Origin: Candidatus Vogelbacteria bacterium RIFOXYD1_FULL_44_32
Lineage (GTDB): Bacteria > Patescibacteriota > Minisyncoccia > Phycocordibacterales > XYD1-FULL-46-19
Direction of reading: 5' to 3'
Length of the DNA: 34,788 nucleotides
Assembly: GCA_001823065.1 (NCBI GenBank)
Contig: MHTJ01000002.1
Span: 119,532 to 154,319, forward strand
How positions within the stretch are numbered: the first letter of the stretch is position 1; each line of letters opens with the position of its first letter. The notes beneath the pieces were generated by a model. It did not search any database and was not told where the DNA came from. It was given only the letters and a program-made list of their open reading frames with translations. This document shows positions 25,000 to 34,788 of the stretch, in pieces. A program made the position numbers and the translations under genes.

Positions 25000-25716
25000 A
25001 TGTTATACATCTACTTTGGATCAGACATAAATAAATCTCAACTGGCTTGGCGGAAATTTGCCGAGGCGGTAAAAACTAAACGCCCAGACGCCGAAGTTTT
25101 TGAATTGGCGGAGGATATTTTTTCGGAAACATCTGCCGACGAGCTTTTGCATGGACAGGGTTTGTTTGTGAGTAAACATATTGTTTTAGCTAAAAGATTA
25201 TTGCAAAACCAGGAGGCCGAGCAGTGGTTATTTGATAATCTAAAAGATATTAGTGAAGCCGACCATATGTTTTTACTATGGGAAGAAAAATTGTTGGCAC
25301 CCCAAAAACAAAAATTAGAAAAGTTTGGGGCTGAACTAAAAGAATTTATTAAAAAACCAGAAGCAGAAATTAAAGACAATTTTATTTTTTCAATTGGTGA
25401 TGCATTGGGAGCGCGTGATCGGCTAAAGTTGTGGAAGGCGGTGGCTGGGGCTAGTCTAAAGGGCTATGAACCAGAAGAAATTTTTTGGCAGTTGTTTGGG
25501 ACAGCACGCAATATGGCCTTGGTCGCTAGGGAAGAGAGTGACCAAGATATACCACTTCATCCATTTGTAGCTAAAAAGACACGGGGTTATTTAAGGAATT
25601 GGGGTGACGAAGGTGCGCTCAAGCTCACTGGTGACCTGATGGCCTTATATCATAATGTGCGGCGCGAGAGTCGGGATTTAGATGTAGCACTGGAGCGGTT
25701 TGCGCTTGAGATATAG
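25000..25716 (+). CDS. holA: DNA polymerase III delta subunit, short form
   Basis: MLYIYFGSD start, GLFVSKHIV (SLF-like clamp-contact motif), IFSIGDAL, LHPFVAKK, ALERFAL end. Confidence 0.75.
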   Translation: MLYIYFGSDINKSQLAWRKFAEAVKTKRPDAEVFELAEDIFSETSADELLHGQGLFVSKHIVLAKRLLQNQEAEQWLFDNLKDISEADHMFLLWEEKLLAPQKQKLEKFGAELKEFIKKPEAEIKDNFIFSIGDALGARDRLKLWKAVAGASLKGYEPEEIFWQLFGTARNMALVAREESDQDIPLHPFVAKKTRGYLRNWGDEGALKLTGDLMALYHNVRRESRDLDVALERFALEI

Positions 25717-25757
25717 ACTAATGATATTTTTTTATGTAGAATACGTGCGTTAGATTT

Positions 25758-25830
25758 GCCCTGTTAGCTCAGTTGGTAGAGCAGCTCCCTTTTAAGGAGA
25801 TGGTCGCAGGTTCGACTCCTGCACGGGGCA
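25758..25830 (+). tRNA. tRNA-Lys (anticodon UUU), CCA not encoded
   Basis: Acceptor GCCCTGT/ACGGGGC, D-arm GCTC/GAGC, anticodon loop CTTTTAA, T-arm GCAGG-TTCGACT-CCTGC. Upstream promoter TAGACT-17-TAGAAT at 25714-25742. Confidence 0.96.
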
Positions 25831-26180
25831 CAAAAAGGCACTTTTTGTGCCCCGTGAGCGAGACAACTGCTTGTCTCGCGTCAGGAGTCGAAAGGACTTT
25901 CAATGTTTGTGAGCGAAGAGCAAACAAACCTGAAAGTCACCCGCGACCGTAGGTCGAGACTCACTTATTGTTACTGTAAAAATATCTTGTCTCCCGTGCA
26001 GGAGTCGAACGCCGGAGCGCACGAAGTCGGAGGTCAGCAGAGCTGGAGGTCAGCAGAGCTCCGGTGCGAGGCGGTGCCTAGACCGAGACTTGGCGACGGC
26101 CCAGGATCGAGTCGAGGGAGACTCCTGCAAAAGTATCAGTCGAAAGTCACCCGCGACCGTAGGTCGAGACTCCTGCACCA
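25831..26180 (+). repeat. tRNA-3'-end mirror repeat array
   Basis: Antisense copies of the tRNA 3' end at 25847-25892 (split by a hairpin) and 25989-26010. Sense fragments GACTCCTGCA near 26120 and 26168. 31-nt direct repeat at 25932-62 / 26142-72. 2 x 16-nt tandem at 26029-60. Confidence 0.85.
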
Positions 26181-26261
26181 CTTCAAATCTTGCCATTTCC
26201 CAATTTAGGCATAGAATCGGTGATAGAAAAAACATCCGCATAGCGGAGGAGGATTGTAAAA

Positions 26262-26561
26262 ATGGGAACAGTAACAACAGGTGTAAATCCTCAGTTATTA
26301 CCGAGAGTCAAAGATTTGCCGAAAAGAGACAGAGCCCTTCGTTTTGGGGACAGTCTTGTCTTTCATTCCGAAACCCATCGGGTCTTGGTGGTGCGTCGGG
26401 GGCCTGATGGGCCGGTGGTTGTCCACTCGGCCGACTTCGACGGCCTTACCCATTTTGGGTTCCTTCAGTATGTCGAACAGCAGGTATATCTGTTTGGGCT
26501 TAAATACCAGAAGTCCAGCCTGGTTTTTGGCCCGACAGATATTGCTTATGATGTTTACTAG
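26262..26561 (+). CDS. GC-rich orphan hypothetical protein
   Basis: Promoter TTGCCA-16-TAGAAT (26190-26217), SD GGAGGAGG (26245-52), hairpin at 26568-26595 after the stop. Confidence 0.7.
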   Translation: MGTVTTGVNPQLLPRVKDLPKRDRALRFGDSLVFHSETHRVLVVRRGPDGPVVVHSADFDGLTHFGFLQYVEQQVYLFGLKYQKSSLVFGPTDIAYDVY

Positions 26562-26620
26562 TCTTTTGGCCCGGGGCGCGTTTGCGTTCCGGGTCGTCGT
26601 TTGTTACAAATATCATACTT

Positions 26621-27100
26621 GTGACTAAGAAAACTTTTTTAATTCTCTATAACATTCGTTCTGCCTACAATGTGGGGGCTATTTTTCGTACAGCGGACGC
26701 GGTAGGGATAAGTAAAATATATTTGGTGGGGGTCACACCGTGCCCGGCCGACAAGTTTGGCCGAGTAAACAGCCAAATCGCTAAAACGGCTTTGGGGGCG
26801 GAAAAGACGGTGGCTTGGGAGTATAAAAAAACGATTGCCCCACTTATGGCCAAACTAAAAAAAGATGGGGCTCAGGTGGTTGCGCTTGAGCAAGATGAAG
26901 AGGCGATTGACTATCGGAAGCTAAAACCAAAAGGTGATTGGGCACTTATTCTAGGCGAAGAAACCAAGGGCCTGTCGAAAGCTATTTTAAGTCAGTCTGA
27001 TTCGATTGTAGAAATCCCGATGAAAGGGAAGAAAGAGTCTTTAAATGTGTCGGTTGCGGCCGGGGTGGCGTTATTTCAAATAATAGGCAATAAAATTTAA
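26621..27100 (+). CDS. SPOUT (TrmH/SpoU family) RNA 2'-O-methyltransferase
   Basis: NIRSAYNVGAIFRTADA, LILGEETKG, EIPMKGKKESLNVSVAAG. Likely GTG start at 26621. Confidence 0.93.
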   Translation: MTKKTFLILYNIRSAYNVGAIFRTADAVGISKIYLVGVTPCPADKFGRVNSQIAKTALGAEKTVAWEYKKTIAPLMAKLKKDGAQVVALEQDEEAIDYRKLKPKGDWALILGEETKGLSKAILSQSDSIVEIPMKGKKESLNVSVAAGVALFQIIGNKI

Positions 27101-27106
27101 AAGCCC

Positions 27107-27137
27107 AAAATATTGGACACCGAGTGTCCAATATTTT
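27107..27137. terminator. Bidirectional terminator
   Basis: AAAATATTGGACAC-CGA-GTGTCCAATATTTT. Confidence 0.8.
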
Positions 27138-27144
27138 TTACAAT

Positions 27145-27308
27145 AAAAAGGGCCGTCACTGGCTCGAGGACCCCTTTCACTCGCCGCTACTAGGGGATAC
27201 TTGGGATAATGTGTTTGGTCCCAGATGTATTGCCTGGGCACACCATCCTTAGTATTGTCTGCTCTTGCCAACCCAGATGGAATTCCTAAATGGGTTTGTG
27301 ACGGCCTT
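27145..27308 (-). ncRNA. Candidate multi-helix ncRNA with an AGUA/GAA (loop E / bulged-G) hairpin
   Basis: Closing stem GGCCGTCAC/GTGACGGCC followed by TTTTT. Several internal helices. Minus-strand promoter TTGCTA-16-TATAGT at 27340-27313. Confidence 0.65.
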
Positions 27309-27405
27309 GTTGACTATATAATATTAATCAAATTTAGCAAGATTTGGATGACAAAATTAGTATTATAGGCCAAAAAATAAGGGTATTGTAAGGTGGCTAA
27401 AACAC

Positions 27406-27434
27406 TTGACAAAATAGATAGAAAAGTGTATAAT
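27406..27434 (+). promoter_or_regulatory. Perfect consensus sigma70 promoter
   Basis: TTGACA-17-TATAAT. Confidence 0.85.
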
Positions 27435-27497
27435 CTAGGATAGGTAGTGTGGGTACCAGACAAAGACTCGCGTAGGCGGGTTGAAGGAGAAAGAAGA

Positions 27498-27977
27498 ATG
27501 AACAAAAAAGTGGAACCAATTCCTGAAGATAAGCGTCTTCAAGAATTGGTTGAAGAAGCTCTGGTCGGAGGCCAGAGCCGAGGTCTCACCCCAGAAATCG
27601 ACGGCGCCATGGCCACCATGGACTGCTATGAGCTGTCCAAGATGGCACAGTCTCTTTCGGGAGGAAGAGTGCATGCGCTCTCCTCATCGGAAGTCAATTC
27701 CATTGCTGGTGGAGCGGTCTCATCTTTTGAGTCTAGGTGGCTCGCCACTCAGATTCTGGAGGGAGATCGCGAACAGTTCTTGTTGGAGAACCCGGAATTC
27801 ATTTCCTCTTCAGAAGAAGAGGGTAGCGAATTCGGGTTTTGGAATCAGGCGGCGCGGGTGAAGGGGGAGGAGGTGCGGACTGCGGTGGTGCTGGCCTGGC
27901 ACGGTAAGTATGTGCGGGTCTCCACGCGCCGGTTGCGCGTCGGGGGTGTTCCAATTTTGTTCTACGTCAATGTTTAG
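27498..27977 (+). CDS. GC-rich orphan hypothetical protein
   Basis: ATG at 27498 after SD GAAGGAG. Consensus promoter upstream and terminator downstream. Confidence 0.7.
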   Translation: MNKKVEPIPEDKRLQELVEEALVGGQSRGLTPEIDGAMATMDCYELSKMAQSLSGGRVHALSSSEVNSIAGGAVSSFESRWLATQILEGDREQFLLENPEFISSSEEEGSEFGFWNQAARVKGEEVRTAVVLAWHGKYVRVSTRRLRVGGVPILFYVNV

Positions 27978-27990
27978 TCTTGTTTCTTTG

Positions 27991-28027
27991 GTCGCGTCTG
28001 GTCTTTATGATCGGGCGCGACTTTTTT
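27991..28027 (+). terminator. Intrinsic terminator
   Basis: GTCGCGTCTGGTC...GATCGGGCGCGAC-TTTTTT. Confidence 0.75.
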
Positions 28028-28034
28028 GTTTAAA

Positions 28035-28901
28035 TTACTTCTGACACTTCTCACAAAAGTGAGTTCCGCGTCCTGCGTGTTTTATTTTAGATATTTTAGT
28101 GCCACAGGTTGTGCAGGGTAGATTGGCACGGCCGTAAACATTTAAGTATTTTACAAAACCACCTTTCTCGCCCGTTGAGGTAACATAATTGCGGGCCGAG
28201 GTACCTTTCATTTTGATGGAGAGTTTTAGGACGGTGAGCATGGATTTATATAATTTTTCAATTTCACTTTTTGAAAGACTGAAAATTTTCCGAGTGGGGA
28301 GTACTTTAGCGAGGAAGCTAGCTTCGTCTATATAAATATTACCCATACCAGCGATGAGGTGCTGGTCGAAGAGGGTTTGCTTGATAGTCCGATTTGGATA
28401 CTTGGTGAGAAGCTCGGTAAAAATATTGAGGGTAAACTTTTTATCCAAAGGTTCAGCTCCGTGCGGGTCCAAAATGATATTTTTTTCCGCCTCGGTTACT
28501 AACTTGAGCCAGCCAAATTTGCGCAGGTCGTTGAAATAGAGGGTAGAGCCGTCGGTAAATTTAAACTCGGCCTGGGTATAGTTGTTTGGCAGATTTCTGC
28601 CGCCGTCACGCTGGGGGTGGCCGCCAACTACAGCTTTGCCAGTTTTGGGAACGAATATAAGCTGGCCGGTCATCTTGAGGTGAACTAGGAAAAAGTGTTT
28701 ACCCGAGAGGGAAATGACCACAATCTTGGCTCGGCGGGATACGCCCAAGACTTTTTTCTTGCTAATATTTTGGGCAAAGTCTTGGGCCGAAAGTGGGAGG
28801 ACCATTTTAGGCACGTGAACAACCACCGACTTGAAAGTCTTGCCACTGATCGCTTTATTTAATTGTCGGGAGACAGTTTCTACCTCTGGTAATTCAGGCA
28901 T
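28035..28901 (-). CDS. mutM: Formamidopyrimidine-DNA glycosylase Fpg
   Basis: MPELPEVE, HLKMTG, DLRKFG, GMGNIYIDE, C-terminal Zn finger. Confidence 0.97.
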   Translation of the reverse strand: MPELPEVETVSRQLNKAISGKTFKSVVVHVPKMVLPLSAQDFAQNISKKKVLGVSRRAKIVVISLSGKHFFLVHLKMTGQLIFVPKTGKAVVGGHPQRDGGRNLPNNYTQAEFKFTDGSTLYFNDLRKFGWLKLVTEAEKNIILDPHGAEPLDKKFTLNIFTELLTKYPNRTIKQTLFDQHLIAGMGNIYIDEASFLAKVLPTRKIFSLSKSEIEKLYKSMLTVLKLSIKMKGTSARNYVTSTGEKGGFVKYLNVYGRANLPCTTCGTKISKIKHAGRGTHFCEKCQK

Positions 28902-28933
28902 GTTCGTTCTAATTATTAGCTGTTACTCATTCG

Positions 28934-29025
28934 CCAATACTGTTTGAAATACACGAATATTTTTCTGCTGAAAAATTTCTCTGCTCGCGCCGTCGCGCTG
29001 TGCAAGGTATTTCAAACAGTGTTGG
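28934..29025 (-). repeat. Long-hairpin intergenic element, copy 2 (30-nt core at 28979-29008)
   Basis: 19-bp inverted repeat CCAATACTGTTTGAAATAC/GTATTTCAAACAGTGTTGG around the exact reverse complement of the copy-1 core. Confidence 0.85.
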
Positions 29026-29026
29026 T

Positions 29027-30319
29027 TCATTCGTCCACTTTGACTTTTTGTTGAAGGAAAGAAGTTAATTCACTACGGGCCACCTCCGCATCGCTCCACG
29101 GTTCTTTAGCGCCATTGGCCCGCATAATATATGGGTCAGTGCCTTTGCCGGTGATGATAATGACACTGCCAGTTTCGGCTTTCTCGATAGCTTTTCTAAT
29201 CGCCAGCCGGCGCTCCATAATTATTTCTTTCGGGGTGTGGGTGACACCAGATGCAACTTGGGTGGCAATTTGTTCGGGGTTTTCGTCGTAAGGGTCTTCG
29301 TCGGTGATAATAACTAGGCTGGCGTATTTGTCGGCGAGACCGCCCATAATTTGTCGGCGGTCGCTGTCGCGGCCACCACCGGTGCCACCCAAGACGGCAA
29401 TGATTTTATGGTCTTTGTAAATCTCGTAAACTTTTTGGAGCGAGTCGGCCGTGTGGGCGTAGTCGACAATGACTTTAAAATCTTGGAGACGGGCCAGTGT
29501 CGGGTCGGTGGGGGTGACTTGCTCCAGCCGGCCGGGGATACCAGAAAATTTTTCTATGGCTTGTTTTATTTTATCAGGACCAATGTTTTGACTTTTGGCG
29601 TAGGTAATCGCGAGCAGAATATTGTAAAGATTAAATTCACCCACGAGCTTGGTCTGGATCTTTTGGCCAGCGTAGGTGAAAAAGAGGCCGTCGACAAGGA
29701 GGGCATGGGGCTCGGCCTCGGCGAGGTGGCTCTCTAGCTTGGTCGCAATATTTATTTTCCGAAAATCATCAAGTGCTGGGTCGTCGCCATTGGTGACCAA
29801 AACTTTATTGGGTTTCCATGATGTGGCTAAAGCATGCGCGATTTTTAGTTTAGCTTCTTTATATTTGGCGAAAGAGCCGTGCGACTCAATATGCTCGGGT
29901 GAGAGGTTGGTGACCAAGAGAGCGTCGAGGGCAATAAATTTGTGGCGGAATTGTTTGGTGGCTTCGGAGCTGATTTCCAAAACGATATAGTCGCAATGGG
30001 CATCAACGGCTTCCCGAATTAGTTTTTGCAGGGTAAACCGTCCCGGGGTGGTCATTTTTAGGCGGTTTGGCCGGCTTTCGTTGCCGATTTTGAAACGCAC
30101 GGTCGAAACGAGGGCCGTTTTAAAACCAGCTTCTTCTAAAATCGCGCTCACGAGCTCGGTGGTGCTCGACTTGCCCTTGGTGCCAGTGACCGCTACTACT
30201 TTGATATGGCGGGCGGGGAAGCGGTAAATGAGGGCGCCAAGGAGGGCTAGTTTCCAGTGATAAATACTAAAAACCCAAGTGGGAACTATTTTTTTGATGA
30301 TATTTTTGATTTTTCCCAT
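29027..30319 (-). CDS. murE: UDP-N-acetylmuramyl-tripeptide synthetase MurE
   Basis: VTGTKGKSST, MTTPG, EISSE, TNLSPEH, VDYAHT, GGGRD, ITGKG. Confidence 0.92.
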   Translation of the reverse strand: MGKIKNIIKKIVPTWVFSIYHWKLALLGALIYRFPARHIKVVAVTGTKGKSSTTELVSAILEEAGFKTALVSTVRFKIGNESRPNRLKMTTPGRFTLQKLIREAVDAHCDYIVLEISSEATKQFRHKFIALDALLVTNLSPEHIESHGSFAKYKEAKLKIAHALATSWKPNKVLVTNGDDPALDDFRKINIATKLESHLAEAEPHALLVDGLFFTYAGQKIQTKLVGEFNLYNILLAITYAKSQNIGPDKIKQAIEKFSGIPGRLEQVTPTDPTLARLQDFKVIVDYAHTADSLQKVYEIYKDHKIIAVLGGTGGGRDSDRRQIMGGLADKYASLVIITDEDPYDENPEQIATQVASGVTHTPKEIIMERRLAIRKAIEKAETGSVIIITGKGTDPYIMRANGAKEPWSDAEVARSELTSFLQQKVKVDE

Positions 30320-31347
30320 TAGCGTCGAATTAGCTTTCTAAATATGTAGAGATAATACCACAAGCGTTTGATTGGCAGGTCATAGCTTGGGCCAAAGTCG
30401 ACCTCGGTGCCAGGGAAATTCTTTTTGAAATTAGTTAAATCGGCCCAGGATTCTTTTTTGTCATTTGGTGTGGATATTCCACCAAAACTATATTTGGTGG
30501 CGAGACGTTTTTTGGCTTCGTTTATTCCGGCCCAGTGGGCAAGATATGAAGGCAGTTTGTCCTTATGTTGAGCAGACGAACCACCAAAGATATGCAGAGC
30601 GGTGTTGCCAAAGATAATTAACAGGTTGATAACTAGCGGTTCGTTGTCAAATGAGGTGACAACCAAAAATCCAGCATGACTTTTTTCGGTTTCAATTAAT
30701 ACTTTTTCATAATAGGATTTGGGGTGAAGCTGAAAATGGTTGCGTTTGGCTGTCTCATTTAATAGTTTATAAAAGTTGTCTAGATGGTCTAAAAAATTTT
30801 CGGTAATAATTTGGGTTTCCGCACCTCTTTTTTCGGCGGTGCGAATAGAGTAGCGGGTGTCTTTGGGTAGTGAGTCAAAAATATTGTTAATATCTTGGCT
30901 AATGTCCATCACCCACTCAAAACGTGGTTGGGTGAGAACAGAATGTTTAATAGCGGGGGGAGTAAAAGAAAAATGTTTGGTAAACAAGTTTTGGTATTTC
31001 AAATCTTGATTAAATCTGACAAAAACGGCTTGGCGAACTTGGGCAATCCTTATTAATTGTTTTTTAAATTCGCGAATCAAATCTTCGCTCGGGGTGCTGG
31101 TAAGAAGGATTGGTCCGTGGGGGATATGGAGCTGGTTTTTGTTTCCAATCAGTGGGGCGGTGATAATTTGAAAAAAAAGAGCCGGGGCACCGTTTTCTTT
31201 GATAACAAATCGTTCCACGGTTAGACCGCGGTTTTCTTGCCAATCTCGGTAGAGACTAGATTGGGCAAAATGGGCATTGTGGCTAGAGAGTTCGGTATCA
31301 TATAATGGCCCCTCAATAGCGTTGATGGTGAATTGGTTGGTGGACAT
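30319..31347 (-). CDS. FemAB/FemX-family lipid II aminoacyl transferase
   Basis: HFAQS..Y, IPHGP, TRYSIRTAEKRG, LAHWAGI..AK, LTNFKKNF. Translationally coupled to murE. Confidence 0.88.
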   Translation of the reverse strand: MSTNQFTINAIEGPLYDTELSSHNAHFAQSSLYRDWQENRGLTVERFVIKENGAPALFFQIITAPLIGNKNQLHIPHGPILLTSTPSEDLIREFKKQLIRIAQVRQAVFVRFNQDLKYQNLFTKHFSFTPPAIKHSVLTQPRFEWVMDISQDINNIFDSLPKDTRYSIRTAEKRGAETQIITENFLDHLDNFYKLLNETAKRNHFQLHPKSYYEKVLIETEKSHAGFLVVTSFDNEPLVINLLIIFGNTALHIFGGSSAQHKDKLPSYLAHWAGINEAKKRLATKYSFGGISTPNDKKESWADLTNFKKNFPGTEVDFGPSYDLPIKRLWYYLYIFRKLIRR

Positions 31348-31922
31348 TAATGTTGGTTGCCGAGTAGGCGTAGGGCCTCTTTTATCCGTTTGTCGGTGGT
31401 GTCGGCCTCGGCCGATATTTTGTGAATAATGTCGCGAATATCGCGCGGTTGGTAACCAAGGGCTGACAGCGCGTCCAATAGATCATTGTCGCCCGAGGCG
31501 TGCATTAGTTCGCTGGTTTCGAGTGCGCCCAGTTTGTCCCGCAATTCAATAATTATTTTTTCCGCACTTTTGCGGCCAATGCCAGAAACCTTGGTCAGAT
31601 AATCGGTATTGCCCGACAGCACGGCCTGGCGCAGGGTAGAAGGGGGAGCGAGCGATAAAATAGCCAGCGCCGACTTGGGGCCAATACCCGAAATACCGAT
31701 GAGGAGTTTGAAATATGACAATTCCTCGCGGTCGGTAAAACCAAATAGGTCGAGGGCGTCTTCGCGGACGGACAGGTGGGTCCAAAGGGTGATTTTAGTC
31801 TCGAGGGTGATTTGGGCTAGGGTATGGGCTGGCAGATACACAATATAGCCTATTCCACCGACTGAAATAATCGCTGATTTATCGTCTTTGTATGTTAGCG
31901 AGCCTTGTAAGTAGCCAATCAT
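31347..31922 (-). CDS. ruvA: Holliday junction DNA-binding protein RuvA
   Basis: MIGYLQG, GIGY, VREDALDLFGF, GIGPKSA, GIGRKSAEKIIIEL, ALSALGY. Confidence 0.97.
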   Translation of the reverse strand: MIGYLQGSLTYKDDKSAIISVGGIGYIVYLPAHTLAQITLETKITLWTHLSVREDALDLFGFTDREELSYFKLLIGISGIGPKSALAILSLAPPSTLRQAVLSGNTDYLTKVSGIGRKSAEKIIIELRDKLGALETSELMHASGDNDLLDALSALGYQPRDIRDIIHKISAEADTTDKRIKEALRLLGNQH

Positions 31923-31928
31923 GACTTT

Positions 31929-31980
31929 ATGATACACGGCGCGGTCAACCCTTGCAATTTATAGCTAAATGCGGTATCGT
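31929..31980. promoter_or_regulatory. Divergent ruvA/rpsT promoters sharing one palindromic -35 (TTGCAA 31952-57)
   Basis: Plus strand TTGCAA-17-TATCGT, then 7 nt to the rpsT ATG. Minus strand TTGCAA-17-TATCAT, then 6 nt to the ruvA ATG. Confidence 0.7.
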
Positions 31981-31987
31981 TTCTCCT

Positions 31988-32260
31988 ATGCCAATAACTA
32001 AATCAGCTAAAAAGGAGCTACGCAAAGGCGTTAATAAACGAGCTTTTAATGAAGAGCGCAAGAAAAATATGCGTGATACAGTAAAAGTAGTTAGAAAATC
32101 TTTGACGGTTAAAAACCCAGCCGAAGCAGAAAAAGGTCTAGCGGCCGCCTACCAAGCTATCGACAAGGCAGCCAAGCGGGGGGTAATAAAGAAAAATGCT
32201 GCCAACCGGAAGAAATCGAGACTAGCGGCCGCGATTAAGAAAGCGAAGGAAATTAAATAA
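31988..32260 (+). CDS. rpsT: 30S ribosomal protein S20
   Basis: MPITKSAKKELRK, IDKAAKRGVIKKNAANRKKSRL. Confidence 0.97.
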   Translation: MPITKSAKKELRKGVNKRAFNEERKKNMRDTVKVVRKSLTVKNPAEAEKGLAAAYQAIDKAAKRGVIKKNAANRKKSRLAAAIKKAKEIK

Positions 32261-32266
32261 ATAGAA

Positions 32267-32298
32267 ACCAAAAAATCCGCGTGAGCGGATTTTTTGGT
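32267..32298. terminator. Bidirectional terminator
   Basis: ACCAAAAAATCCGC-GTGA-GCGGATTTTTTGGT between convergent genes. Confidence 0.85.
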
Positions 32299-32313
32299 GA
32301 AAGGACTTTTAAA

Positions 32314-32844
32314 TTATAGCCCCTGATTTTTTGATTGTCTGGTGCGTTGAATTAATTCATCTCGAAGTTGTTCGCCGACTGCCATAGAAACTGCAGGAAG
32401 TCTTCCCTCCGCACCACCGCCCATTATTCCATAACGTGACATTATTGCGCTCGCTCCAGCAGTTTGGATATTGAGGTCAGAAAGACCAAGAATGCGAGCC
32501 AAGATGCCACGGTCGATGTCAACGTTTTGAATTCGGTCGTAAGGAACAGTGACATATTTTTTATAAATGACACCCGATTCTTTACGAAATCCGTTATCAA
32601 GGAGGTCATAGCGATAAAAGTGATAAGTGAGTTTAGCCCAAACAAAACACAAGATTAGAAAGGCAGGAATAATAGCCCACAACCAATTCAGAAAGCCAAA
32701 CGAAAACTCACTGCTATTATTTAAGTTGTCAAAACCACCTAAAAATGCTGAGCCCCAAATACTCAAAAATATTATCGGTATGAACCAACGCAGAACAGAA
32801 CTAAAAAAGAAAAACCAGACTGCTTTTGGATCAAGTTGTTTCAT
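32314..32844 (-). CDS. YdbS-like membrane protein with bacterial PH domain
   Basis: Two TM helices, then GVIYKKYVTVPYDRIQNVDIDRGILARILGLSDLNIQTAG. Promoter TTGCCA-17-TATACT at 32959-32931. Confidence 0.88.
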   Translation of the reverse strand: MKQLDPKAVWFFFFSSVLRWFIPIIFLSIWGSAFLGGFDNLNNSSEFSFGFLNWLWAIIPAFLILCFVWAKLTYHFYRYDLLDNGFRKESGVIYKKYVTVPYDRIQNVDIDRGILARILGLSDLNIQTAGASAIMSRYGIMGGGAEGRLPAVSMAVGEQLRDELIQRTRQSKNQGL

Positions 32845-32988
32845 AATTTTATTTTAATTATTAAATAATAATTTAGTAGAAATCTTTTCCTACAGGGTGC
32901 TTTAGGGCAGGAATCTTTCATTACATGAACAGTATACCTTTGCGATTTTCTCTTGGCAAAGCCACTCAAAAATAGCTGACAGATTGGT

Positions 32989-33822
32989 TTATTTATTGAT
33001 AACTAAAAGATTCCTTTTATAATCAGTTATTTCTTCGTTTAAACCAGTCGGGTAATCTCTCCAGGCATTTGTGATGGTATTGTAACTGTATCTGAAACTA
33101 TTGCCATATATTGTCCCCGGTTCATTGGTGATAAATTCTTTATTTGTTTCATCGTAGCCCTTAATTATAATCATATGGTGTATTGGTCCGGGGGGTTTGA
33201 AGCGTGGGTTGTTTAATTTTCGGCCATCAAGCGGTATAAATACTATCTGGTTGCTATCAATAGCGTTTTTTATATCACCAATCGTTGCTTCTCTAATTAT
33301 TTTGACATTATTATATTTAAAATACCCCTTAAATATTTTTGCGGTGTCGGACACAGAAGTATCATAAAAAAAGTCGTAATTTTTTTTCTGCCAATCAACC
33401 AAGGCTAATATTTTATCTCGCGCGATAGTGGGAGAGGAAATTGGGGTGCTGGTTATCCAACCCCAAGCCATAAGCATCAGCGCTTCTTCACAGCCGTACT
33501 TTTGTTTCAAATCAGCCCATTCACCAAGGGGGGCTTGGGTGATAAAGGGTAGGCCAGATATTTGCTTTACTTCGGCCACATTATTTTGTGGGGCTGGTTG
33601 CTTAACAGCGATGATATTTTTAGTTTGAACAGATTGTTCTCTTGCAACTTTTTCATCGATAATGGTTTTTCCGGAAATTTCAGTACTAAATTCCTCAGCT
33701 ATTTTTGTTGCTGGTTTTTCAATTTGGATATTTGAATAATATACGGAAAAACCAAATACTAAAATAAAAACAGTTAGACTGCTAACAAAAAAAGTAATAA
33801 CAAATTTTTCAATGGAGGGCAT
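32989..33822 (-). CDS. Membrane-anchored C39-like cysteine peptidase
   Basis: TM anchor, PFITQAP..W...GCEEA (Gln/Cys), HMIIIKGYD (His), NEPG. Confidence 0.85.
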   Translation of the reverse strand: MPSIEKFVITFFVSSLTVFILVFGFSVYYSNIQIEKPATKIAEEFSTEISGKTIIDEKVAREQSVQTKNIIAVKQPAPQNNVAEVKQISGLPFITQAPLGEWADLKQKYGCEEALMLMAWGWITSTPISSPTIARDKILALVDWQKKNYDFFYDTSVSDTAKIFKGYFKYNNVKIIREATIGDIKNAIDSNQIVFIPLDGRKLNNPRFKPPGPIHHMIIIKGYDETNKEFITNEPGTIYGNSFRYSYNTITNAWRDYPTGLNEEITDYKRNLLVINK

Positions 33823-33932
33823 TTATTTGTAAAAGGGGGGAATTTGACTGACCCCACTCTGTTAAAGTTACAGAAAGGTACAGTGGGGCTCTCGCCTGCC
33901 AGTAGGCAGGTTTTGCGGTTTTTGGGTATTTT

Positions 33933-34373
33933 TTATACTATCTGCGCCCGAGCGGCTTTTATCTTGTTTAAATAGTTGTCTACCTGGTTTCGAATAGCTT
34001 GCAAATCGTCTGATATCTTTATTTTCTTTTCTTCGCTGATATCAACTTTTGTTTCCAGGGTTTCCATCGCGATGTTGATGTCTCCAGAGAAATTGAGAAG
34101 ATGTGTTTCAGCGTTATTTAGCCCACGCATAAATTCAGCTATTGGTTCGACAGCGCTCAAAAATTCTCGTCCTTTTTCTTCAGCATCTCCTTCATTTTCA
34201 AAAGGACCTTCCACATATCCTGCTCTTTCGAGAACTCCTTTGACATATTCTTCTGGTAATTCGCCTTGTTCTTGAAGTCTTTCAACCCTATTTTTAATTG
34301 TCTGGAAGTAGACATCCTTGAACGGCGATTGTTCTAAAGCGGATGTCTCTTCTGGTATTGATTCAAATGACAT
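33933..34373 (-). CDS. Acidic helical hypothetical protein
   Basis: 146-aa ORF with AT-rich upstream region and MSFE start. No recognisable motif. Confidence 0.7.
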   Translation of the reverse strand: MSFESIPEETSALEQSPFKDVYFQTIKNRVERLQEQGELPEEYVKGVLERAGYVEGPFENEGDAEEKGREFLSAVEPIAEFMRGLNNAETHLLNFSGDINIAMETLETKVDISEEKKIKISDDLQAIRNQVDNYLNKIKAARAQIV

Positions 34374-34505
34374 GTTTTAATTATAAATTATTAATCAAAA
34401 TTTTGGAAATTTATTAGGATTTAGTGTATTTATCCTCATTAAGCTTTCCACTGTTTGATTTCCTACCTGCCGGTAGGTCGGGTGAAGTGAGACAAACAGT
34501 TCTTA

Positions 34506-34788
34506 CCGGCAGGGATCTTTTCCTACGGGAACAGTACAGGCTTCACATCTCATTTCGCTGAATACAGCTTATTACGATAAGTTCAGCCTTTTCGATTCCT
34601 GACGCGAGCAAAGCAGTTTGCTCGCTCCGGGGGCACACTCCGCTCTGCTTCGTGTGCCCCCGGCAGGACGCTTAGCTATCTCACCCTTTGGAAACCCTCG
34701 GTTTTCCAACGAGCTTCGCTCTGCCTTCCTCCACGAGAAAACTACAGTTTTCCCGACCCCTTTCGAGTTCGATTCCTGCCGGGTAGAC
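34506..34788 (-). repeat. Second tRNA-3'-end mirror repeat array, truncated by the window end
   Basis: Minus strand reads GTCTACCCGGCAGGAATCGAAC ... CCTGCCGGGGGCAC ... GTGCCCCCGG[hairpin]CAGGAATCGAA ... GATCCCTGCCGG. Confidence 0.8.

Follow-up and report, generated by a model that had tools for sequence, protein, structure and literature searches.

Extragenic palindromic repeats of the REP, REPIN and BIME type are mobilized by RAYT enzymes (HUH Y1), casposons use a Cas1-family integrase and leave a 14–15 bp target duplication at the tRNA 3′ end, and replication template switching gives inverted triplications (DUP-TRP/INV-DUP) and quasi-palindromes. Williams reportedly described, in 2002, tyrosine integrases that target tRNA 3′ ends with the crossover in the T-loop, and direct repeats or arrays of tRNA 3′ ends are said to be the classic mark of such integration. 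Here, we analyse a 34,788 nt stretch of Candidatus Vogelbacteria bacterium RIFOXYD1_FULL_44_32 (genome G000, contig C2, 119532–154319), referred to as the window, in which tRNA genes are followed by modules made of an inverted copy of the tRNA (about positions 53–74), a conserved multi-hairpin core and a direct copy (about positions 57–74). Coordinates are in window numbering unless a contig is given, and the core types are called families A, B and C. With a probability of roughly 0.45, the modules are non-autonomous elements that colonize tRNA 3′ flanks, move or swap cores via T-loop-derived borders and have arms that derive from the local tRNA or are converted to it. No published account of such elements was found in full-text literature searches, judged mostly from titles and abstract openings.

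Comparison with described elements

Like REP, REPIN and BIME sequences, the modules are short, non-coding, strongly folded, multi-copy, intergenic and geneless, and REPs too often stand after genes. A REP sequence, however, is the same everywhere, whereas the arms of a module copy the adjacent tRNA and the core alone is shared; the modules also lie almost only behind tRNA genes, and the presence of a Y1/HUH gene does not follow them. Miniature transposable elements bearing inverted repeats (MITEs) resemble them in length (100–160 nt), terminal inverted repeats, a flanking direct repeat, patchy copy number and nested copies, and the modules are likewise short, non-autonomous and multi-copy (13 strong B and 9 A in 705 kb, and up to 23 B in relatives). 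In contrast to those of MITEs, the module inverted repeats are locus-specific, being the tRNA 3′ end rather than a sequence conserved across copies, and the direct repeat measures 15–20 nt or more and is always the tRNA tail. No cognate transposase was detected in G000, where only rve, DDE_Tnp_1, IS110 DEDD and TnpB were searched.

Integrative elements that target tRNA genes share with the modules a direct repeat starting in the T-loop, arrays downstream of the tRNA and an intact tRNA, and a tRNA 3′ direct repeat does flank the insert here (9 of 38 tRNAs; 61 forward arms). The modules differ in being about 130 nt long instead of kilobases, in holding an extra inverted target copy and in showing the same cores behind many tRNAs. 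The only resemblance to casposons is the ~15 nt identity of some arms, and G000 has no Cas1 domain. Neither of two retroelement features, a reverse transcriptase and a copied, non-encoded CCA, was seen in G000. Template-switch triplications are similar in that the tRNA tail occurs as three copies, the middle one inverted, with palindromic terminators near the junctions and no need for an enzyme; they are one-off events, though, whereas the modules carry a conserved core and recur at dozens of loci in many genomes.

One account (PMC12045711) places TIGR arrays in parasitic bacteria and phages, including Parcubacteria-like genomes, and describes 36 nt units in arrays of 5–15 beside a Nop-domain gene, with 9 nt spacers that match foreign DNA. 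TIGR units share with the modules two short variable segments around a conserved hairpin-like repeat. The modules measure 110–160 nt, are usually single, stand behind tRNA genes and match the neighbouring tRNA, and an identity with TIGR arrays, the only described system found to be close in theme, was rejected on unit size, context and targets.

Tandem modules behind tRNA-Arg(GCG)

The first-pass annotation, made from the letters of the window, had noted a mirror array at its right end and predicted that a minus-strand tRNA with the 3′ end spelled by the arms lay just beyond. Such a gene, its 3′ end 18 nt past the last base, was found: tRNA-Arg(GCG), on the minus strand at C2:154337–154409 (ARAGORN and the Rfam tRNA model), whose 3′ end (...GGTTCGATTCCTGCCGGGGGCA / ...GCAGGTTCGATTCCTGCCGGGGGCA) is exactly the tRNA-like end spelled by the arms. 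The strings that the annotation quoted, GTGCCCCCGG[AGCGAGCAAACTGCTTTGCTCGCGT]CAGGAATCGAA at minus strand 34636–34591 and GTCTACCCGGCAGGAATCGAAC at minus strand 34788–34767, are both present. It had taken the array as a single one with the grammar seen at tRNA-Lys; the arm grammar is indeed shared, but the array consists of two element families in tandem, family A (34654–34788) followed by family B (34500–34636). In the sense of the tRNA, the order is tRNA, 17 nt spacer, A mirror arm, ~98 nt core, forward arm, a similar 17 nt spacer, B mirror arm split by a hairpin, a second and different core, and a decayed forward arm. The features are as follows.

34767–34788, minus strand: family A 5′ arm, GTCTACCCGGCAGGAATCGAAC, an inverted copy of tRNA-Arg(GCG) ~53–74 with 3 mismatches in 20, all at the acceptor end
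34669–34766, minus strand: family A core, GGGGTCGGG..hairpin..GTGGAGGAAGG, GCGAAGC mini-hairpin, GGAAAACCGAGGGTTTCC hairpin and GGGTGAGAT, from an alignment of 8 genome copies
34654–34668, minus strand: family A 3′ arm, TCCTGCCGGGGGCAC, a direct copy of the last ~15 nt of tRNA-Arg, with 14 of 15 and the next C identical
34637–34653, minus strand: A–B spacer, ACGAAGCAGAGCGGAGT, resembling the 17 nt after the tRNA (ACGAATGCAATGAGTGT) with 8 of 16 positions equal
34627–34636, minus strand: family B 5′ arm, first half, GTGCCCCCGG, the exact complement of the tRNA-Arg acceptor 3′ strand, discriminator and next C
34602–34626, minus strand: family B hairpin H1, A-GCGAGCAAA-CTGC-TTTGCTCGC-GT, inserted between the acceptor and T-stem parts of the mirror arm
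34591–34601, minus strand: family B 5′ arm, second half, CAGGAATCGAA, complement of the tRNA-Arg T-stem 3′ strand and T-loop
34518–34590, minus strand: family B core of subtype B2, from alignments, with a long H2 (GGCTGAAC...GAAGCCTG) and H3 (GTTCCCGTAGGAA)
34502–34517, minus strand: degenerate family B 3′ arm, GATCCCTGCCGGTAAG, with the T-stem part kept and the acceptor part decayed
34462–34499, minus strand: candidate remnant of a further module end, a CACCCGACCTACCGGCAGGTAGG hairpin that by eye resembles the B H3 region and has no match to the family B model

In both families, the two arms pair into a helix like that of the acceptor and T-stem, which closes the core; in family B, this helix is interrupted by the conserved CTGC-loop hairpin. 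The 3′ arm of the A copy pairs with its 5′ arm, and the minimum free energy (MFE) fold closes the module by that helix. Covariance models built from the genome's own copies, R1 for family B and R2 for family A, score the B copy at 105.2 bits (fold z-score −4.69) and the A copy at 137.2 bits (fold z-score −4.16), and both bit scores hold by construction because the two copies are in the seed alignments. No terminator-like site was predicted within the array, including the stretch between tRNA-Arg and the modules, which are therefore probably transcribed with the tRNA. The modules of the Arg and Lys arrays do not have the form of an intrinsic terminator either (GC-rich hairpin followed by a T run).

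The likeness to the tRNA-Lys locus was recovered by a repeat finder as a 53 nt inverted repeat (25846–25898 and 34585–34637) with 83% complementarity, the longest among 52 inverted pairs within 25000–34788. The H1 hairpins of the two loci differ by compensatory stem changes (GCGAGACAA/TTGTCTCGC versus GCGAGCAAA/TTTGCTCGC), as had been pointed out from the letters alone. The pattern AGCGAG-N4-CTGC-N4-CTCGCGTCAGG, put forward for a genome search, matched twice in the whole genome (one forward and one reverse), at precisely these two loci, and the same pattern read backwards gave 0 and 0 matches.

A 71-codon open frame on the minus strand (34572–34787) crosses both modules, A and B; copies do not conserve it, and it is most probably spurious.

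Arms follow the neighbouring tRNA

The arms were compared with tRNA tails in 83 B copies from G000 and about 40 other genomes, 67 of which have a same-strand tRNA no more than 450 nt upstream. Of 30 scored positions, 25.4 agreed with the copy's own tRNA and 18.0 with other tRNAs (4,268 pairings). Among 52 distinct tails, the neighbouring tRNA was the best match (ties allowed) in 62 of the 67 copies, and 45 of the 67 scored above the 99th percentile of the null. These data bear out the idea, advanced in the first-pass annotation, of a family of structured elements whose arms track the local tRNA: in the B copies of many genomes, we met neither a general lack of a matching tRNA nor arms that fail to covary with it. 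Among the 16 B copies lacking a tRNA are some at contig ends, second units of arrays and two behind intron-bearing tRNAs. Four B copies from other orders of the class, inspected by eye, all stand behind tRNAs with matching forward and T-stem arms; two of them have a degenerate mirror acceptor part. Of nine family A loci from relatives, six lie behind a called tRNA with matching arms. Placement is strict, just 3′ of tRNA genes and in the same orientation.

The direct repeat runs from the T-loop to position ~74. In all three core families, the left border is the T-loop complement GAATCGAA and the right border is GA-N-TCC, the 3′ half of the T-loop. The mirror arms copy the gene and not the mature tRNA, as they run into trailer bases and contain the complement of CCA only where CCA is encoded (Met). 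An origin from mature tRNA by reverse transcription was considered for one locus with a CCA complement (L054) and rejected because this complement is explained by the gene's own trailer palindrome, with one mismatch, and because G000 has no reverse transcriptase gene. CCA after the last forward arm, a candidate mark of RNA origin or of the original gene end, is present in ~7–9 of ~30 terminal arms versus 6 of 38 tRNA genes and so is not distinctive.

Occurrence and dynamics

The G000 assembly has 705,274 bases in five contigs, 43–45% G+C and a completeness of 100% by marker genes. When the last 20 nt of each tRNA were used as a query, a forward or mirror copy was found downstream of 12 of 38 tRNAs, and a plain string search placed forward copies of the last ~15 nt 80–190 nt downstream of 9 of the 38. 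With R1, 13 strong B matches were obtained (17 at E≤0.1) and R2 gave 9 A matches, so that an A or B module stands behind 17 of 40 tRNA genes if the intron-bearing Asp and Phe genes are counted. Hairpins of the form AACTGCTT occur 11 times in G000, 10 of them inside B modules, and four control loops occur 0–1 times each. The best within-genome core identity is 86–90%.

Not every match is a complete module behind a called tRNA. Two B matches near contig starts follow degenerate tRNA-like ends, and two A matches lie at non-tRNA sites, one after the end of a protein gene and one between two copies of a 23 nt hairpin. Only fragments were seen at Ser-tga (a forward copy of T-arm and acceptor) and at Glu-ttc (a B-type CTGC hairpin inside its terminator). 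At the latter, tRNA-Glu(UUC), C3:141318–141370, a stand-alone GGACTGAA-CTGC-TTCAGTCC forms the GC core of a terminator-like palindrome without the rest of the module. Two further B matches, at first without a called tRNA, follow genes that the first ARAGORN pass had missed and that are found only with introns allowed: tRNA-Asp(GTC) (C4:27913–28198) has a 211 nt anticodon-loop intron and tRNA-Phe(GAA) (C3:133680–134018) one of 265 nt. The element-free tRNAs of G000 are usually followed directly by a palindrome made of an A run, a GC hairpin and a T run. Such pieces also lie between the tRNA and many B copies as something separate from the module, and since the terminator-like palindrome then sits between tRNA and mirror arm, the mirror extends the palindrome into the tRNA.

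The genome sets of relatives are samples, and absence means that a module was not found in the genomes searched. Family B was detected in 38 of 61 genomes of the order (E≤1e-4), with 0–23 copies each, in 21 of 36 genomes of the window's own family (f1) and, out of 121 genomes sampled evenly from the class (G000 included), in 30. Family A was present in 18 of 41 genomes, a set differing from that of B: some genomes have A without B (for example, G006, G012 and G035) and others B without A (G014 and G023).

Three congeners of G000 (G002, G003 and G004) allow individual sites to be compared. G000 lacks B at Val-tac, Arg-ccg, Ile-gat, Arg-tcg and Arg-tct, where B is present in at least one of the three. 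The flanks of Val-tac are conserved, with the tRNA on one side and a terminator and the next gene on the other; G004 has ~160 extra bases between them, consisting of a terminator-like hairpin, mirror arm, core and forward arm, and G003 has two modules. At other fixed tRNAs, the modules are near-identical (Tyr in G000/G003 89%, His 91%, Thr 92% and Lys-ttt in G000/G004 90%), or the H2–H3 core is of another subtype, with overall identities of 62% (Tyr, G000/G004), 59% (Leu-gag, G000/G003) and 62% (Arg-gcg, G000/G002). What stays alike in these core-replaced modules is the mirror arm, together with H1 and the borders derived from the T-loop. Changes between orthologous copies fall mainly in the tip of H2. 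Some copies are tandem or nested, and in G002 the convergent tRNA-Lys and tRNA-Val share a single H1 CTGC hairpin between their mirror arms. The segment with tRNA-Lys and its array (25758–26200) is inverted relative to the flanking genes in G003/G004 versus G000/G002 (loci L030, L031 and L032).

Proposed mode of spread

Several observations support spread as non-autonomous elements. The arms track the local tRNA, and one arm logic serves three unrelated cores; copy number is as patchy as in mobile DNA, and A is distributed differently from B, with presence and absence among congeners and with nested and tandem copies; cores are replaced with the arms kept; the mirror arms copy the gene; two A copies sit at non-tRNA hairpins; and G000 has no RVT_1, IS110 DEDD, Cas1, rve, DDE_Tnp_1 or TnpB domain, with Y1/HUH not being associated with B.

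We infer a mechanism in which at least three core families would pass from one tRNA locus to another, or be exchanged between them, with no enzyme of their own. Each core is flanked by universally conserved sequence derived from the T-loop (GAATCGAA on the left and GA-N-TCC on the right), and this shared sequence may seed recombination, or template switching during replication, between loci. The arms would draw their acceptor and T-stem parts from the local tRNA, or keep them identical to it, through duplication and short-tract conversion. As direct repeats flank the module, clean loss would be possible too.

Folding, covariation and a possible RNA function

In the B fold, helix P1 joins the acceptor parts of the mirror and forward arms (9–10 bp), H1 is a 9 bp hairpin with a CTGC loop, P2 pairs the mirror T-stem/T-loop with the forward T-loop/T-stem (about 8 bp), and the junction holds the long hairpin H2 and the short hairpin H3 with a GTA loop. 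All seven B units folded have z-scores between −4.7 and −8.1. In A units, the arm helix closes around two or three hairpins, and z-scores of −0.8 to −4.2 (6 units) indicate that their folds are less uniform. The conserved unpaired motifs of B are the CTGC loop, the GTA loop and the junction GAAAG/GTAC, and mini-hairpins of GCGAAGC, an unusually stable single-stranded DNA hairpin, recur at loop tips.

The helices are backed by compensatory changes, as expected of a structured RNA. Across 34 distinct B copies from many genomes, all nine H1 pairs show double changes with 99.3% of cells paired, and for H1 and H3 together the figures are 14 of 15 pairs and 97.9%. The covariation score was reached by 0 of 500 shuffles, and sliding the partner reduced pairing to ≤50%; the model had served to fit the alignment, and hairpins of DNA would yield the same picture. 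The forward strand folds better than its reverse complement in 31 of 41 copies. On the tRNA-sense strand, register-anchored helices contain 94 G.T versus 64 A.C mismatches, a difference whose significance is overstated by the relatedness of the copies. Whole-unit counts of G.U by strand show no bias (79 of 1,806 versus 87 of 1,810), unlike tRNAs counted in the same MFE-based and method-biased way (252 of 2,896 versus 114 of 2,714), and wobble pairs make up only about 4% of pairs. At gathering score, Rfam 15 matched the window with its tRNA model only; at E≤1, loci L001 and L002 gave tRNA and two chance-level matches (24.5 bits with a cut-off of 78, and 23.6 bits with one of 65.7).

A number of these results weigh against mobile elements as the whole explanation. 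The Tyr module is 89% identical between congeners versus 77.8% over the surrounding 1,657 nt alignment, and the Lys-ttt module 90% versus 73–74% in the flanking genes; orthologous copies that are better conserved than their surroundings argue for constraint after insertion rather than for junk. Neither an intermediate of insertion nor a circle was seen, nor any copy that is truly recent. H1 stands between two target-derived arm pieces, which simple two-switch copying does not explain, and the strong conservation of orthologous copies lies outside the simple copying model as well. The 16 nt after the forward arm are the tRNA's own trailer in 8 of 61 arms, mostly arms inside arrays, together with the final arm of the Val array in G003, and are something else in the other 53; given that the direct repeat so rarely reaches the trailer, duplication of a tRNA end together with its terminator is not general. 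To judge from sequence, the modules are probably co-transcribed with the tRNA, and the mild excess of G.T over A.C fits some selection at the RNA level.

The modules may instead be cis-acting RNA structures of the tRNA precursor, persisting because they are useful in 3′-end processing, termination or trailer protection. The mirror arm would pair with the tRNA 3′ end or with its own forward arm, and the closed form would imitate the acceptor/T-arm stack, offering a handle for RNase Z or RNase P. The strict co-oriented placement just 3′ of tRNA genes is consistent with such a role, as are promoter-like sites, located upstream of the tRNA and again past the arrays, with no consensus terminator between tRNA-Arg and A/B. 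The very stable and reproducible B folds (7 of 7), the strong covariation and conserved unpaired motifs, the conservation of orthologous copies above their flanks (89–90% versus 73–78%), the sense-strand excess of G.T and the better folding of the forward strand point the same way. RNA function is the main rival explanation, and we consider it rather less likely than spread as mobile modules: it gives no reason for one arm logic on three unrelated cores or for arms that copy the trailer. The many complete genomes of the same family without modules (B in 21 of 36, f1) indicate that the modules are dispensable. Many B copies, moreover, follow a terminator-like A-run/hairpin/T-run of the same form as after element-free tRNAs, and the lack of strand bias in whole-unit G.U, unlike in tRNAs, and the low share of wobble pairs also speak against it.

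Enzymes

Searches for RVT_1, IS110 DEDD, Cas1, rve, DDE_Tnp_1 and TnpB zinc-ribbon domains gave no match in G000, and the positive-control genomes matched. G000 encodes one tyrosine recombinase (Phage_integrase match, C2:90983–91492), which adjoins no module. Across 61 genomes, Y1/HUH and B were found together in 24, B alone in 14, Y1 alone in 15 and neither in 8, with no association between them. The co-occurring recombinase, reverse transcriptase or HUH gene suggested in the first-pass annotation was thus not found to accompany the modules. That annotation had left two roles side by side, control of tRNA maturation and a tRNA-targeting mobile unit; dynamics like those of mobile DNA were observed, without any of these three kinds of gene accompanying them.

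The single Y1/HUH (IS200-like) gene of G000 (C4:61651–62390, a 259-codon stop-to-stop frame) is flanked by 27 nt palindromes, AATATTGGACAC-YSRG-GTGTCCAATATT, which are unrelated to the tRNA modules, and a third, degenerate copy lies inside.

Movement in trans by a dedicated, unrecognized enzyme would be another way to spread miniature elements. Such an enzyme would recognize the tRNA-like closing helix or the hairpin loops, cut in the T-loop and at the tRNA 3′ end and leave a long target duplication. The direct repeat, which always extends from the T-loop to ~74, fits this proposal, as do the conserved loops and junction bases, which resemble protein contact sites, the recurrent GCGAAGC mini-hairpins and the range from 0 to 23 copies between related genomes. 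It appears quite improbable, however, given that none of the transposase, integrase, reverse transcriptase or Cas1 families searched accompanies the modules and that the sole Y1/HUH gene of G000 has its own unrelated palindromes. The terminal inverted repeats also differ at every locus, which to our knowledge no known transposase tolerates, and a staggered cut leaves the inverted target copy unexplained.

The tRNA 3′ direct repeats, which start in the T-loop and come in arrays, might also suggest that the modules are decayed attL/attR scars of integrase-borne islands or prophages in tRNA genes, and a real 1.5 kb insertion with ~19 nt direct repeats does lie between tRNA-Lys and the B module in G003. 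This origin is very improbable and already close to refuted: the same 100–150 nt cores occur behind at least 17 different tRNAs in 705 kb and across the class, the modules hold an inverted target copy that att scars do not have, G000 has one tyrosine recombinase gene and the helices covary instead of decaying.

Implications

If spread on T-loop-derived borders is the right reading, then ~0.4% of a minimal 705 kb genome, and the 3′ flank of nearly half of its tRNA genes, are taken by a repeat whose ends are written by the target and not by the element, unlike those of REPs, MITEs and integrase scars. It would be a concrete, testable case of transposase-free DNA spread on conserved tRNA sequence, in host organisms not yet open to genetic study. 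A more far-reaching and doubtful extension is that the modules could represent an undescribed class of enzyme-less mobile cassettes in ultra-small, candidate phyla radiation (CPR)-like genomes, in which the T-loop would serve as portable homology and the tRNA-mimicking closing helix would be rebuilt at each site from the inverted and direct target tail. The rebuilt handle may let tRNA-processing enzymes cut the core out as a small RNA, joining selfish spread with RNA function. If, on the other hand, the modules act as RNA structures of the tRNA precursor, they would form a new class of tRNA-linked structured RNA that is widespread in a major uncultured lineage.

On the practical side, assemblies break at the modules in tRNA loci, inversions of tRNA segments between congeners are linked to them, and they can be mistaken for genes, as with the 71 aa open frame here. 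The four public runs that hold the sequence, all of them DNA and from groundwater and soil metagenomes, give contigs that break at modules, with some short-sided joints too.

Modules behind tRNA-Lys(UUU)

The comparison locus within the window has the following features.

25758–25831, plus strand: tRNA-Lys(UUU)
25847–25975, plus strand: family B module of subtype B1, its 3′ end interrupted by the nested family C module (R1 96.7 bits, copy outside the seed)
25987–26131 (about), plus strand: family C module with mirror arm GTCTCCCGTGCAGGAGTCGAAC, third core type and short forward arm GACTCCTGCA
26096–26185, plus strand: displaced B 3′ end, with the second copy of a 31 nt repeat (26142–26172) and then GACTCCTGCACCA (R1 28.6 bits, over an interval that partly coincides with the 3′ part of the family C module)

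The family C insertion duplicated 31 nt (25932–25962 and 26142–26172), and the two copies are 100% identical. The same core type is also found behind tRNA-Leu(UAA) in G002. No terminator-like site was predicted on the tRNA-Lys strand across the array, and one lies on the opposite strand.

The Lys and Arg loci were also considered as the two ends of one 8.7 kb element with terminal inverted repeats. This was rejected because the intervening genes read as housekeeping genes (Fpg-, Mur-ligase-, RuvA- and S20-like), an assignment made by eye from the translations and not by family search. Pfam gave nothing above cut-off for five neighbouring open reading frames (ORFs). A weak R1 match at 32898–33041 (20.7 bits, 32% GC) lies inside an ORF and is regarded as chance.

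Other observations

In G003, the site behind tRNA-Lys was at first taken as empty, but a B module lies 1.5 kb further on, beyond an unrelated insertion. This insertion (G003:C48, L030 1097–2640), which splits tRNA-Lys from the module, has 51–59% G+C over most of its length and is flanked by ~19 nt direct repeats, CACAAATAAAAATAC-Y-GCA. It contains a 262 aa ORF without a Pfam match and a 123 aa ORF with a sub-threshold match to a receiver domain. In G012, a family A copy is surrounded by a perfect direct repeat of 52 nt. This repeat borders a run of N and was set aside as a probable scaffolding artefact; at this locus (L186, G012:C18:5110–5210), the same ~50 nt stand on either side of the N run, near a family A copy behind a CCA-bearing tRNA-like end. 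An ORF of ~230 aa lies between tRNA-Leu(UAA) and tRNA-Lys(CUU) in G000 (C3:176540–177240) and is missing there in G002.

Viral contigs (IMG/VR) were considered as carriers of family B. The family A motif had no match in them; the degenerate 26 nt B motif AAAGTACCNGCNNNNGTAGNNNGAGA matched 77 (L063–L139), none of which is a B module by R1, and the candidate was rejected. These 77 viral contigs are more than would roughly be expected by chance.

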